A DNA stretch of 64,000 nucleotides from Terriglobia bacterium (GTDB taxonomy: Bacteria > Acidobacteriota > Terriglobia > 20CM-2-55-15), in contig CAXWPJ010000012.1 in the NCBI GenBank assembly GCA_963664115.2, positions 64,001 through 128,000 on the forward strand, written 5' to 3'. How positions within the stretch are numbered: the first letter of the stretch is position 1; every line of letters begins with the position of its first letter. The notes beneath the pieces are model-generated. The model did no database searches, was not told the origin of the DNA, and was given only the letters and a program-made list of their open reading frames with translations. The position numbers and the translations under genes are program-made. This document shows, piece by piece, positions 8,170 to 52,098 of the stretch.

Positions 8170-8210
8170 AGTTCCTCCGTATCGGGTCTATTTCGGGTGG
8201 GTGTCTGCCG

Positions 8211-8666
8211 GCGGGTGCGCTGTAAGCCGAATTCTGTTCCCCGACCGGGGCCGGGGCGGCAATCATTCATCTGGATCCCGGCTTTCACCGGGATTCGAGC
8301 GGCCTACCCGGAAGCTCGGACGAGCCGTCCTTCGACGCGCCTAAGCGCGACACACTTCCCTATTTGGCCTTGCTCCGTGTGGGGTTTGCCAAGCCGGTCC
8401 GTCACCGAACCGCTGGTGCGCTCTTACCGCACCTTTTCACCCTTACCGCTATTAAATTGAGGTCAGAGCCCTATTTCCCCTTTTAACCGGAACATTCCCG
8501 GCCGTCGAAATTAGGGAAATAGGGCTCTGACCCCAATTTCAAACAGCGGCGGTATATTTTCTGTGGCACTTTCCGTCCCTTTCGGGCCCCCGAATTACGG
8601 GGCACACTGCCCTGTGGAGTTCGGACTTTCCTCTCCCTTGACGGAAGCGATTGCCCACCCACCCGC
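8211..8666 (-). ncRNA. rnpB: RNase P RNA, bacterial type A, with enlarged P12
   Basis: GAGGAAAGTCCGAACTCC, AGTGCCACAGAAAA, GGTAAGGGTGAAAAGGTGCGGTAAGAGCGCACC, ACAGAATTCGGCTTA; P1 GCGGGTG/CACCCGC. Confidence 0.96.
8454..8539. repeat. Palindromic element inside rnpB P12
   Basis: 26-bp arms AAATTGRGGTCAGAGCCCTATTTCCC at 8454-8479 and 8514-8539; the one mismatch is G.U in the RNA sense. Confidence 0.8.
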
Positions 8667-9646: not shown

Positions 9647-10136
9647 CTCGAATAATTTCCACCCCCAGGAGGGCTACGCCGACCGAAATCGCCGTGTCGG
9701 CAACATTGAAGTTTGGCCAGTAATAGGCATCCAGATGAAATTCCAGAAAATCAACGACATATCCATAGATCAAACGATCGTAAAGGTTGCCGATCGCGCC
9801 TCCGAATATGAGGGCGAGCCCTGTCTGCAAAACGCTCTGCCCGATCGGGCTCCGAACACTGTAAATCGCAACCACAACGGCGGCTGCAACGGCGAATCCC
9901 GACAGGACGACAACCCGGTACGGAGAGTCGGCTGAGGCAAACACGCCGAATGCAACACCGGTGTTGCGAACGTAGGTCAGGTTGAAGAAGCCGGCAATGA
10001 GCGTCAGGGATTCCCCCACCTCAAAGCGCTGATCGATGAGGAATTTCGTCAGTCGATCGACGAAAACCACTGCACCACTGAGAGCCAGGTAGGGCAATCT
10101 TTCCCTGATAATAAAACTGTCCCTCTGAGTCGTCAT
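9624..10136 (-). CDS. lspA: Lipoprotein signal peptidase II
   Basis: NTGVAFG, GAIGNLYDR, VVDF, FNVAD. Confidence 0.95.
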   Translation of the reverse strand: MTTQRDSFIIRERLPYLALSGAVVFVDRLTKFLIDQRFEVGESLTLIAGFFNLTYVRNTGVAFGVFASADSPYRVVVLSGFAVAAAVVVAIYSVRSPIGQSVLQTGLALIFGGAIGNLYDRLIYGYVVDFLEFHLDAYYWPNFNVADTAISVGVALLGVEIIRDEIRSRS

Positions 10137-44645: not shown

Positions 44646-45155
44646 CTACCATTCATCCTGCTTGACGAGTTTCCGGATCTTTCGCCGAATGAGATCCCGT
44701 TTGATGAAACTCAGATGATCAAGGAACAGCACACCGTTGAGGTGGTCCATTTCATGGCAGAAAGCCCGCGCCAGCAAATCAGACCCTTCGAGGACCAGTT
44801 CCCTGCCCTCGATATCCACTCCCTGAATGACGACGTTCTTCGGACGCCGGACCGCCTCGGTGAAGCCGGGAATGCTCAAGCAACCCTCTTCCTCGTATTG
44901 TTCGCCGTCGGTGGATACGATTTCCGGATTGAGAATGACCATGAGGTTGTCTTCCTTTTCACCGGCACTGGTGTCGGTCACCATGATCCGCTGGGAAACG
45001 CCCACCTGTGGCGCAGCCAACCCGACACCGGGCGCCTTATACATGGTTTCCACCATGTCCTGTATGAGCTTGATTTCCGAGTCGGTCACGTTCTCCACGG
45101 GCGCTGACACTTTATGGAGAACGTCCGCACCGAATTTGACAATGGGTCGATTCAT
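44646..45155 (-). CDS. def: Peptide deformylase
   Basis: GVGLAAPQ, EGCLS, HEMDH. Confidence 0.97.
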   Translation of the reverse strand: MNRPIVKFGADVLHKVSAPVENVTDSEIKLIQDMVETMYKAPGVGLAAPQVGVSQRIMVTDTSAGEKEDNLMVILNPEIVSTDGEQYEEEGCLSIPGFTEAVRRPKNVVIQGVDIEGRELVLEGSDLLARAFCHEMDHLNGVLFLDHLSFIKRDLIRRKIRKLVKQDEW

Positions 45156-45279
45156 AGCTCGAAATTACTATCCTAACATCTCTAATGGTTTGGAGTTTTC
45201 GTTCGAATTGTAGATACGGGCAGGCCGTTGAAAGCATTGTGGTCTCATGAGAGTGTTCACGCTAAGAACTTCGTGAAAC

Positions 45280-45480
45280 AAGATTTCGCTCGGTCGTTCA
45301 AGCGGCTGACCATCTCGCGCGCGTTCCACGCGTGGGCCGAACGACCGGCGACCCTCTCCATCATCCTTGATGGAGAGGCGTATTGGGGATTAAGAAATGT
45401 TGAAGCCGTTCTTAAAGATAACCCGCAGCGTTCCTCGCTGCGGGTGGACAACGAGGCGGTAGCCGAGGCGTCGGAGTAAT
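45280..45480 (-). ncRNA. Candidate structured ncRNA, copy 1 (three GGA-loop hairpins); family not recognised
   Basis: Homologous to 51102-51292, with identical blocks and compensatory stem changes. Confidence 0.65.
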
Positions 45481-45586
45481 TAGATAATCGGATCGAACCG
45501 CGCCAAACTGCTAATCACCGAATTACTTAATCAGGACGCCAGGAGAGACTAAGAACGCCGTCAACAGCACCGCTACAGCTGATATT

Positions 45587-46771
45587 TCAATCGACCCCGC
45601 CAAACCTCCGGAGTTGATCCAGATATCCCGAGTAATTCCTGAGCGTCTCGCCCATCGAATCGCCACCGAACTTTTCGGCTACGGCAGCCCCAAGAACCAG
45701 GGCCACCATGGACTCGGCGATGACCCCGGCCGCCGGTACAGTACAAGTATCTGAGCGTTCGTGCGCCGCCAAGAAGGGTTCCTTCGAAATCATGTCCACA
45801 GAACGGAGGGCTTTCTTGAGCGTAGGGATAGGCTTCAGATACCCGATTACCCGAACATCCTCGCCGTTGGTCATTCCCCCTTCTATGCCGCCGGCTCGAT
45901 TCGACAACCGCACGAAACGGCCCGTTTCCGGATCGAAGGTGATTTCGTCATGGGAAACCGAGCCACGAAGTCCTGCGATACTGACGCCGTCGCCAATTTC
46001 AACAGCCTTGACCGCGTTGATCGACATGATTGCCTGGGCGAGCCGGCCGTCAATTTTTAAGTCCCAGCCGGTATGCGATCCCAAACCAAGAGGCGTGTTT
46101 CGCACGACGACTTCAAAGGTACCCCCGATCGTATCCCCGTCTTTCTGCGCTCCCTCGATCGCGGCGACCATGCGCTTCGAATAGTCTTCGAGGACGCAAT
46201 GCACGACTGTGTCATTGCGAACCGATTCGAGCTGTTCCCAAGAAACAGAAAAACCATCCGGGACCTTGACCCGACCGATTGCTGTTGTGTGACTCAGTAT
46301 GTCCACATCGAAAGCCCTCAGGAACTCTTTGGCCACTGCACCCGCAGCTACACGCGCCGTGGTTTCGCGCGCGCTCGAGCGTTCAAGAATATTTCGGGCA
46401 TCCGATTGATCAAATTTCTGAGAGCCGACGAGGTCCGCATGTCCGGGCCTGGGCCGGGTGACGCGTCTTTTCTCCGCGACTTCGGTCGAAACCGGCCCGA
46501 CCGACATCACGCCTTCCCAGTTCGGCCAGTCCCGATTCTCGATCAGCAGGGCAATGGGACTCCCCAGAGTCCGACCGTGCCTCACTCCGGAAAGCACGCG
46601 AACCTGGTCCGACTCGATCTTCATGCGCCCGCCACGGCCATATCCTCCCTGACGGCGCTTCAGTTCAGCGTTGATGAAATCTATACTCAGATCCAGATTC
46701 GCCGGAACGCCATCCACGATCGTGACCAGCGCCTGCCCGTGGGACTCACCCGCGGTCTTAAAGCTCAGCAT
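45587..46771 (-). CDS. aroC: Chorismate synthase
   Basis: TAGESHG, RPGHAD, ERSSARET, GGIEGG, KPIPT; true ATG at 46771. Confidence 0.96.
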   Translation of the reverse strand: MLSFKTAGESHGQALVTIVDGVPANLDLSIDFINAELKRRQGGYGRGGRMKIESDQVRVLSGVRHGRTLGSPIALLIENRDWPNWEGVMSVGPVSTEVAEKRRVTRPRPGHADLVGSQKFDQSDARNILERSSARETTARVAAGAVAKEFLRAFDVDILSHTTAIGRVKVPDGFSVSWEQLESVRNDTVVHCVLEDYSKRMVAAIEGAQKDGDTIGGTFEVVVRNTPLGLGSHTGWDLKIDGRLAQAIMSINAVKAVEIGDGVSIAGLRGSVSHDEITFDPETGRFVRLSNRAGGIEGGMTNGEDVRVIGYLKPIPTLKKALRSVDMISKEPFLAAHERSDTCTVPAAGVIAESMVALVLGAAVAEKFGGDSMGETLRNYSGYLDQLRRFGGVD

Positions 46772-50355: not shown

Positions 50356-51036
50356 ATGACATTTCACACGATCAGCGGAAAGATCGGCAAGAGCGGCAAA
50401 AAGGCTCAGGATTTTCTCGTTGACCGCCTGTCCAGGCACCGCGTCAACCCCAACATCCTCACCTTCATTGGCCTCGGAGTAAACATCTTCGCGACAGTAC
50501 TCTTCGCCAAGGGCATGTTCTTCTGGGCTGGGTTCGTCGTGCTGTTCGCCGGGGTCTTTGACATGCTCGATGGCGCCGTCGCCCGCGTCACCAAAACCGT
50601 AACGACTTTTGGAGCATTCCTGGATTCCGTTATCGACCGGTACTCCGACATGTTGATGCTGTTCGGACTGCTCATTTGGTACGCCAAGATGGACCGCATG
50701 TTCTATGTCGGCCTCACCGCCATGGTCATCATCGGTTCCGTCATGACCAGCTACACCCGCGCCCGCGCCGAGTCCCTGATCCCCGCCTGCAAAGTCGGCT
50801 TCCTGGAACGCGCCGAACGGATCGTGCTTCTGATCATCGGGGCCTGGACCGACCGTATGGCCGCCATACTCTGGATCATGGCAATCCTTACCAATTGGAC
50901 GGTTTTCCAGAGAATCTGGTACACCTGGAAGGAAGCCAGCAGACTCGAGCGGCAGGAACTTTCTCTCGCGATTGAAGAAGAACAGGACCCCTCAAAGGAA
51001 GCCGAAGTCGCCGCAAAAGCCTCACTTCGAGCGTAA
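50356..51036 (+). CDS. CDP-alcohol phosphatidyltransferase
   Basis: PNILT, D-x-x-DG-x-x-AR...G...D...D motif, SYTRARAE, ERAER. Confidence 0.9.
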   Translation: MTFHTISGKIGKSGKKAQDFLVDRLSRHRVNPNILTFIGLGVNIFATVLFAKGMFFWAGFVVLFAGVFDMLDGAVARVTKTVTTFGAFLDSVIDRYSDMLMLFGLLIWYAKMDRMFYVGLTAMVIIGSVMTSYTRARAESLIPACKVGFLERAERIVLLIIGAWTDRMAAILWIMAILTNWTVFQRIWYTWKEASRLERQELSLAIEEEQDPSKEAEVAAKASLRA

Positions 51037-51101
51037 TAGTCCTGCTTTCTGAGTCAGAGATTCGTCACTTAACAGATTCGTCTTTCCGATCTGATCATTT
51101 T

Positions 51102-51292
51102 ATTACTCCGACGCCTCGGCTACCGCGTCTTTCCTCTGAAAGCGGTCCACCCGCACCGGAGGACCGGTGCGGGTTATTCTGGGACAGGAGCTAACGTTCC
51201 GCCAATCCCCAATAAGCCTTGCCATCAGGAAGATGGCGAGGGTCGCCGGTCGTTCGGCTAGGATGGCCGATTGAACGACCGAGCGAAATCTT
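51102..51292 (+). ncRNA. Candidate structured ncRNA, copy 2; family not recognised
   Basis: Homologous to the reverse complement of 45280-45480; G.U pairs favour this strand. Confidence 0.65.
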
Positions 51293-51408
51293 AATTGCAG
51301 ACCTTTAAATCCACTGCACCTGGATACAAGCGACCATTTGCGTTCAAATTTCGGTCTCAGGGAGTGCCAATATAGGAAGGAAAATCTCGAAGCTATCCGA
51401 ACGTCCGT

Positions 51409-52098
51409 CTATCGAATGACATCCCCTGGAATGTCCAAGTTGAAAACGTCATTGGAAATGCGGCCGTTAAGCACGATGTCGGAATATTTCACGATCTGAT
51501 AGTCACCGCCGGCTTCGTTCAACCGGCTCTGTATGGGAATCCATCGGCTCTGATCGACCCACAATTGAATCGTGGGAAACATACCGGCAACGCGTTCGGA
51601 TTTCGGTTCAAGCTTCAAAATCGATGTTTGAATGCCATCCAGGATCTCCTCGCCTACAAGGACCACATCGTAATCGTCCCTGAGCCTCTGGTTCGAAGCT
51701 CCGAATCCAATCATCAGGAATTCCGCAACGTTCCCTCGCTCGCCGAGATCATGTTCCTCCAGAACATTGATCCGAGGACGGTACAGTTGCGCCTTGCCGT
51801 CGGCTACAAGCAAGTGCTGTTCAGCCGGTTCGCTGATGCTGAGTCGAATGCGGCTGTCTTCGCCGGTCCCAGCAAAATACACTTTGCCGGAGTCCGTGCT
51901 GCGGACGTTGACAAAAATTACAACCTTGGTGCGCTCGATGTCGGCCTCGAGATTACGAAATGCCCGGCCGGCCAAGTCCATGTGTTCCAACACCGCGTCC
52001 AGACCGGTGCCGGCCTGGGCGCCCGGACCGGTCTGAGGAAAGGCCAGGGGGCTCCCGAACAGGGACACCAGGGTCAATAACCACAACAGGGATTTCAT
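51409..52098 (-). CDS. LolA-like periplasmic lipoprotein carrier
   Basis: Signal peptide, G-x-V-Y-F, LLVADG, L-x-L-x-PK, LWVD, F-x-L-x-x-P-x-x-V terminus. Confidence 0.75.
   Translation of the reverse strand: MKSLLWLLTLVSLFGSPLAFPQTGPGAQAGTGLDAVLEHMDLAGRAFRNLEADIERTKVVIFVNVRSTDSGKVYFAGTGEDSRIRLSISEPAEQHLLVADGKAQLYRPRINVLEEHDLGERGNVAEFLMIGFGASNQRLRDDYDVVLVGEEILDGIQTSILKLEPKSERVAGMFPTIQLWVDQSRWIPIQSRLNEAGGDYQIVKYSDIVLNGRISNDVFNLDIPGDVIR

Follow-up and report, generated by a model that had tools for sequence, protein, structure and literature searches.

The window, by which we mean the whole 64,000-nucleotide stretch of Terriglobia bacterium DNA analyzed here, carries two intergenic stretches (positions 45,280 to 45,480 and 51,102 to 51,292) that a sequence-only reading had presented as copies of an unrecognised structured RNA gene. 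Both lie where that reading had placed them and are colinear (blastn: 75% identity over 174 nt, plus a 27-nt block), and aroC and def are indeed the genes that flank the first copy. The structured stretch is the inner part of a repeat of about 290 bp, very likely a MITE of the IS630 type, whose parts and neighbors are as follows.

45250..45542, minus strand: whole MITE copy 1, 293 bp long and lying between aroC and def, with its terminal repeats located
45519..45542, minus strand: left terminal inverted repeat of IS630 type, decayed (6 of 24 positions mismatched against the family consensus); the same terminus is found on complete IS630 elements
45444..45473, plus strand: left module, a short helix closing a purine-rich internal loop with a three- or four-base mini-hairpin (covarying pair, strand preference)
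45421..45445, minus strand: hairpin A, a 10-bp stem with a T-rich run after it; it resembles a terminator in copy 1 (fold, covariation)
45379..45420, minus strand: linker between hairpins A and B, of roughly neutral divergence (59% identity in seven same-site pairs, against 67% at fourfold-degenerate sites)
45353..45378, minus strand: hairpin B (10 bp), whose GGA loop is similar to the CsrB repeat described in PMC7652899 (covariation, loop counts)
45286..45351, minus strand: hairpin C, in copy 1 the variant with a long apex; most copies have a short GGA-loop variant
45250..45273, minus strand: right terminal inverted repeat, likewise decayed, with 9 of 24 positions mismatched against the family consensus
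51041..51330, plus strand: whole MITE copy 2 (290 bp; core 51102-51292), between convergent genes
51041-51064 and 51307-51330: terminal repeats of copy 2 (7 and 11 mismatches of 24 against the consensus)
45587..46771, minus strand: aroC, chorismate synthase, upstream of copy 1 (gene identity confirmed)
44646..45155, minus strand: def, peptide deformylase, downstream of copy 1 (gene identity confirmed)
50356..51036, plus strand: CDP-alcohol phosphatidyltransferase-like gene reading into copy 2 (all family matches below cut-off)
51409..52098, minus strand: LolA-like gene converging on copy 2 (family search)

A dispersed repeat with IS630 termini

The element is far more numerous than the two copies initially counted. 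An nhmmer profile made from these two yielded 61 matches at E<1e-5 in the 4.9-Mb genome, 43 of them near full length, and 70 matches after one iteration. Six of 41 genomes gave matches: this genome, all four congeners, and G022, a member of another genus that carries the 5' part only; the full element was found in a single genus. An 18-base core motif matched 147 times in G002, 42 times in G003, 22 times in G004 and 20 times in G001, and its reversed control matched nowhere. A covariance model limited to the B-C half of the element matched nothing in 150 other genomes of the phylum, where 29 candidates per genome were scored under strict filters.

The Rfam search returned no match for the element at the gathering score; by gathering score and by E-value alike, neither copy and none of 12 related loci gave anything significant, tRNAs aside. 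The best weak matches were to P11 (17.7 bits against a cut-off of 70) and, on copy 2, to PrrB/RsmZ (15.8 bits against 44; E 0.18). The window as a whole gave RNase P and a tRNA only. This RNase P RNA (window 8207-8666, minus strand) contains an 84-nt AT-rich inverted-repeat insertion in one of its helices. Arms resembling those of the insertion flank, by eye, a Y1 transposase gene in G003 (L017:1135-1174 and 1960-1999), which suggests that a REP-like insertion may have entered rnpB.

The family consensus extends beyond the coordinates first noted to about 290 bp, has 24-bp inverted repeats at both ends, and is nearly the same across five genomes (125 copies, namely 42, 62, 10, 6 and 5, a set that holds only part of the copies of each relative). 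Decayed termini of this kind are visible only in such a multi-copy consensus. The earlier statement that terminal inverted repeats are lacking must therefore be revised, as both copies carry them with 6 + 9 and 7 + 11 mismatches, respectively. The repeat is crisp in some G002 copies and decayed in this genome. The same terminus occurs in 14 of 35 family genomes and, in a scan of species genomes, at no fewer than 119 loci across many phyla. Among the loci listed, 54 stretches have paired ends, eight of them 1,145-1,169 bp and 42 of them short (66-453 bp), and a transposase-like frame is present at eight loci. Three proteins tested from same-terminus elements scored 265-270 bits against the NCBIfam IS630 model (cut-off 100); judged by these sequence scores, complete elements with these termini encode IS630 transposases. 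In the complete IS630 elements, the transposase frame runs into the right terminal repeat, which supplies its last seven residues and the stop codon.

No transposase with the ends of the MITE was found in this genome, where the transposases of about 35 IS630 loci are 37-51% identical and have other ends, or in the four congeners (best 47-52% identical). The closest IS630 transposase, 63% identical, resides in G047, and its ends differ as well. The lack of an IS630 with matching ends in the genome and its four congeners is consistent with the decayed state of the MITE termini. We rejected the resident IS630 copies as mobilizers because their ends differ from those of the MITE. A now-missing IS630 transposase would instead have copied the element in trans into the four-base IS630 target.

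Several further elements came to light. The resident IS630 has recently expanded at its roughly 35 loci into near-identical copies with ends of their own (e.g., C2:407430-408482 and C9:547851-548903), and four resident IS630 copies sit in the left target of a MITE copy. The IS630 termini of the MITE also enclose a different structured interior of 269-298 bp (L043, L052-L055 and L060-L063 in genera g4 and g10; L039 in g7; L090; L156); those tested gave no Rfam match. A symmetric purine-rich internal loop like that of the left module is present in 7 of 52 short same-terminus elements. Genomes G022 and G049, both of genus g3, contain a tandem unit of about 307 bp with two oppositely oriented relatives of the left module (L012:1200-1920 and L400, respectively). 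A different MITE-like family of 275-358 bp has crisp terminal repeats (C1:35948-36246, C2:896417-896691, C2:1029157-1029454, C9:900621-900920 and C9:538985-539342). Elements of 3.1-3.4 kb with IS1-like ends (C4:64359-67482, C6:129402-132525 and C10:484007-487418; L406, L407) show, by eye, 8-bp target duplications. Their transposase passes the Pfam model DDE_Tnp_IS1 and not the NCBIfam IS1 model; two of them share the same two passenger genes, one of which looks by eye like an HTH plus peptidase protein, and the third holds another, inserted transposase. At C12:539042-542611 of this genome, three nested inverted-repeat pairs lie 3.4-3.6 kb apart, possibly elements inserted within one another's ends.

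Sites occupied in one genome are frequently empty in another. At the aroC-def site, G002 has the element and G004 only a left-end remnant, and the site is empty in G001, G003 and G013; the site of copy 2 is filled in G002 and without a copy in G001, G003, G004 and G013. For the 62 copies of G002, the corresponding sites in this genome are empty in 34 cases, filled in 13 (two of them reversed) and without synteny in 15; one site with opposite orientations is L319 in G002 and C2:787878-788166 in this genome. Fifteen sites are cleanly empty: five have a single intact CTAG, two more are one base off, and eight are too diverged to show the target. Two-base and four-base models of target duplication both fit. 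In relatives, many copies have lost parts or are missing altogether. Copies at the same site often differ in their module variants, for instance in a long versus a short apex of hairpin C, which indicates that conversion or re-insertion occurs.

With genes called by our own simple hexamer caller, 22 of 42 near-full copies lie between convergent genes, compared with 187 of 1,151 long intergenic gaps (p 3.6e-8); seven are oriented with and nine against transcription in tandem gene pairs, and four lie between divergent genes. Enrichment between convergent genes is likewise reported for pneumococcal repeats and IS elements in PMC3049150. The copies display no replication-strand bias (24 versus 22).

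Collectively, these findings do not support the view of the element as an unrecognised ncRNA gene: its termini are of the IS630 type, dozens to about 150 dispersed copies exist, syntenic sites are empty, two same-site copies are reversed, there is neither a strand preference nor a consistent promoter, and the element is confined to one genus. Nor does it behave as a fixed, widely distributed single-locus ncRNA gene, given the empty sites in relatives and the lack of matches to the B-C model in 150 other genomes of the phylum. The sequence-only reading had itself named a MITE as the finding that would speak against its proposal, and a MITE is what we find, although its copies are old and diverged rather than near-identical.

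Folding and conservation of the inner hairpins

Hairpins A, B and C and their compensatory changes are real, both in the two copies in which they had originally been seen and across the family. The fold z-scores against shuffles are -4.4 for copy 1 and -5.1 for copy 2. In an alignment of 39 copies (three of 42 were omitted for duplications or poor anchoring), 97.1% of the stem cells are paired, and two-sided changes are seen at 14 of 36 pairs; this level was reached by none of 500 shuffles, and slid controls pair at 30-44%. Mutual information over the 125 copies recovers A, B and C together with a short helix before hairpin A, a fourth covarying element on the 5' side that the original set of hairpins had missed. 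One covarying pair of this left-module helix reads one way in 77 copies and the other way in 42. Read on the opposite strand, the loop closed by this helix is rich in purines and contains a hairpin of three or four bases.

The two halves of the element prefer different strands. The left half folds better on the strand opposite to the one first noted in 109 of 125 copies, and the right half on the first-noted strand in 99 of 123. On the latter strand, G-U pairs outnumber A-C mismatches 44:11 in hairpin B (22:9 once a single polymorphic pair is removed) and 9:2 in C, compared with 18:21 in A; without that one pair, the overall excess of G-U is weak (50 versus 32, p 0.06). Hairpin A is followed by at least five T in 49 of 125 copies and is terminator-like in copy 1, whereas copy 2 received no terminator call. 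No consistent promoter was found: copy 2 has one site matching at 9 of 12 positions, copy 1 has none, and the upstream hexamer is kept no better than neutral DNA. Pairing of the 5' leader with loop B was considered and dropped; the two are complementary, but there is no compensatory change, and the excess of C-to-T equals the neutral spectrum.

Copies that occupy the same site in two genomes allow rates of change to be compared within the element. In the seven such pairs available (an eighth is absent from the alignment), stems A and B are identical at 127 of 140 positions and the 5' arm of C at 88 of 91 (91-97%), and the 5' internal-loop motif, which has no partner arm, is about 92% identical; these values are inflated wherever the copies were gathered by anchors, which lie in hairpin A, in the 5' motif and on the 3' arm of C. 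By contrast, the termini retain 160 of 302 positions (53%), the linker 169 of 286 (59%) and the left subterminal part 50%. Fourfold-degenerate sites of 124 gene pairs are identical at 9,946 of 14,856 positions (67%); termini and linker (50-59%) are thus kept no better than such sites. Within hairpin C, the two middle bulge bases are kept at 50-69% and their neighbors at 97-100%.

Part of this conservation may stem from re-insertion or conversion. Same-site copies share 57 of 105 deviations from the consensus (54%), only slightly more than the 2,904 of 6,307 (46%) shared by random pairs, which also show a similar contrast between stems and ends. Slow change in the unpaired motifs and a fast bulge within a conserved tract nevertheless favor, in our judgment, site-specific selection. 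As to the initial claim that selection acts on RNA structure, a constraint on folding is supported by the covariation and by the better-kept stems at shared sites; these data accommodate RNA and single-stranded DNA alike as the folded molecule.

Explanations for the well-kept hairpins

Taken together, we consider it probable that the element is an IS630-type MITE whose inner hairpins are kept by selection and fold in the transcripts of neighboring genes. It is very probably an ordinary MITE, whose hairpins are likely kept because of how they fold when single-stranded. Transcripts from neighboring genes would run into the element and fold there, and this read-through is the likely reason for selection on the inner hairpins. 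The role would be that of a two-way 3'-end structure, acting in termination or in protection from exonucleases, with one folded half for each strand; we regard this predicted role at RNA 3' ends as evenly balanced between right and wrong. Such action on read-through transcripts has been proposed for other MITEs in PMC3184786, PMC10969869 and PMC3733652, and MITEs that fold, covary and sit at convergent gene ends have a precedent in PMC3184786 and PMC3049150. In contigs assembled from RNA runs, which hold 5-13% of the sampled words, low-depth pieces touch the element and its neighbors, the RNase P control being swamped by other organisms.

A more specific function for the core, binding of the regulator CsrA, is improbable in our assessment. 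The copies, alone or as the 3' tail of an mRNA, would jointly titrate CsrA, each offering two or three GGA-loop hairpins, and the MITE shell would have spread them. GGA is found in the loops of 91 of 125 A hairpins, 107 of 123 B hairpins and 94 of 119 C hairpins. In the 192 five-base loops of B and C, positions 1 to 4 are conserved 191, 183, 191 and 190 times, and position 5 is variable (167 T, 18 A, 5 C, 2 G), as it is in the CsrB repeat (PMC7652899). Of 125 copies, 114 have one or more CsrB-type heptamers on the GGA strand, compared with four that have any on the other strand; all these counts are inflated by the relatedness of the copies. Loop insertions give six-base forms resembling the SELEX site (PMC7652899). 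The 44:11 ratio of G-U over A-C in hairpin B, which is seen on the GGA strand, the weak PrrB/RsmZ match on copy 2, and a genome with two csrA genes, one without an adjoining fliW, fit as well. That Rfam score, however, falls far under its cut-off; a copy has two or three sites and CsrB about 18; stem length is 10 bp, while SELEX ligands mostly have four contiguous pairs at most (PMC7652899); 34 of 125 A loops lack GGA and a few loops are inverted. A consistent promoter is lacking, and 13 of 42 copies have no gene that reads into the GGA strand. csrA is present in 33 of 35 family genomes, whereas the full element is confined to one genus; a csrA gene so common also renders its co-distribution with the element uninformative.

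It is improbable that a MITE scattered a CsrA-binding cassette to 50-150 gene ends per genome, to act through read-through transcripts as a distributed sponge. The chance is equally slim that such a sponge operates alongside a fliW-linked csrA and a stand-alone one in the same lineage, with selection keeping the hairpins long after movement stopped. The two csrA genes lie at L034:1402-3145, after a flagellar-looking gene and fliW, and at L035:1402-1629, standing alone; this pair of paralogues is common across the family, and in this genome its members are in the regions C9:34610 and C9:507406. Should CsrA bind the hairpins, a regulatory network built by a transposon would be at hand. It would bear on the joint action of FliW and RNA antagonists of CsrA within one species, a question left open in PMC7652899.

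That no selection acts on the hairpins at all is very unlikely. Here, template switching would repair or mirror the hairpin arms, recombination between copies would overwrite the palindromes, and ends and linker would drift. Template switching can indeed create compensatory changes without selection and skew base-pair frequencies, and inverted loops, of which we found two in A hairpins and three in B hairpins, are its signature according to PMC8794818. The differing module variants of same-site copies, the many copies partly deleted or missing in relatives, and the weakness of the G-U excess lend themselves to this explanation too. Yet arm-to-arm copying alone should, by our reasoning, pair changes and not make them rarer, and the rate of change in the stems is several times lower than in the termini and linker. 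The variable bulge bases amid nearly invariant neighbors in hairpin C are not predicted by tract-wide conversion, and the internal-loop motif is well kept despite having no partner arm.

Equally small is the probability that the folded molecule is single-stranded DNA, a REP-like cassette for an HUH (RAYT) enzyme or for another protein binding single-stranded DNA, carried in several MITE shells. Two formulas for DNA mini-hairpins (PMC13037366) describe the left module in 99 of 125 copies, and of 64 four-base loops only 10 obey the GNRA rule of RNA. A second genus has this module too (7 of 35 family genomes), joined there to a different right half; 11 of 125 copies fit an IS1-like terminus better than the IS630 terminus; and Y1 transposase genes are present in all five genomes searched. 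None of 13 Y1 loci, however, has any module within 1.5 kb, and a system of the REP/RAYT type is rejected on that count. A bias between leading and lagging strand is absent. The B and C loops have one and the same middle base in 191 of 192 cases, whereas three-base loops of DNA tolerate any base in that position (PMC13037366). The reading as an IS630-type MITE with inner hairpins maintained by selection in neighboring transcripts is the one that we retain as probable.

As a MITE the element is ordinary, and it is instructive: strong covariation and the lack of an Rfam match do not make an ncRNA gene. The remaining puzzle lies in the four helices and the GGA loops that dead copies still retain.

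Comparison with known systems

The element is short, lacks a transposase, is dispersed in many copies, shares its terminal inverted repeats with autonomous IS630 elements and has empty orthologous sites that show the IS630 target, and hence appears, from its sequence, to be of a known kind; the family itself is apparently undescribed in the literature searched. No description of it, or of a CsrA-binding MITE, was found in the titles and abstract openings searched, which mostly do not cover subscription papers, and a large MITE catalogue (PMC11602168) might contain it.

Complete IS630 elements (L069, L081, L115, L141 and others) have the same 22-24-bp terminal repeat and four-base ends as the MITE. 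They are about 1.16 kb long, encode a transposase and, by eye, bear no likeness to the hairpin core beyond the termini. With CsrB/RsmZ the element shares hairpin loops that contain GGA and vary at the fifth base, and a host that has CsrA; those RNAs, however, come from discrete genes, each with its own promoter and many sites on short stems, whereas the element offers two or three long-stem sites in a mobile repeat. REP/BIME sequences with their RAYT are comparable in being GC-rich palindromes at gene ends with modular variants. Unlike them, the element has no RAYT nearby, is bounded by the termini of a DDE transposon, and is much longer.

Two folding repeats come closer. Like our element, bcr1 of the Bacillus cereus group is a dispersed repeat at non-conserved positions in which compensatory changes keep independent stem-loops; it is about 155 bp long (PMC3184786) with 5-bp direct repeats, while the element has IS630 ends and a four-base target. 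RUP of Streptococcus pneumoniae resembles the element in its terminal repeats, target duplication, stem-loops and enrichment between convergent genes. It is thought to be moved in trans by IS630-Spn1 (PMC3049150), just as we propose that an IS630 transposase may have moved the element. Compared by description, RUP has a length of about 107 bp, is AT-rich and forms its fold from the termini, and the element is about 290 bp and GC-rich inside. Unlike RUP, it keeps four internal helices while its termini decay.
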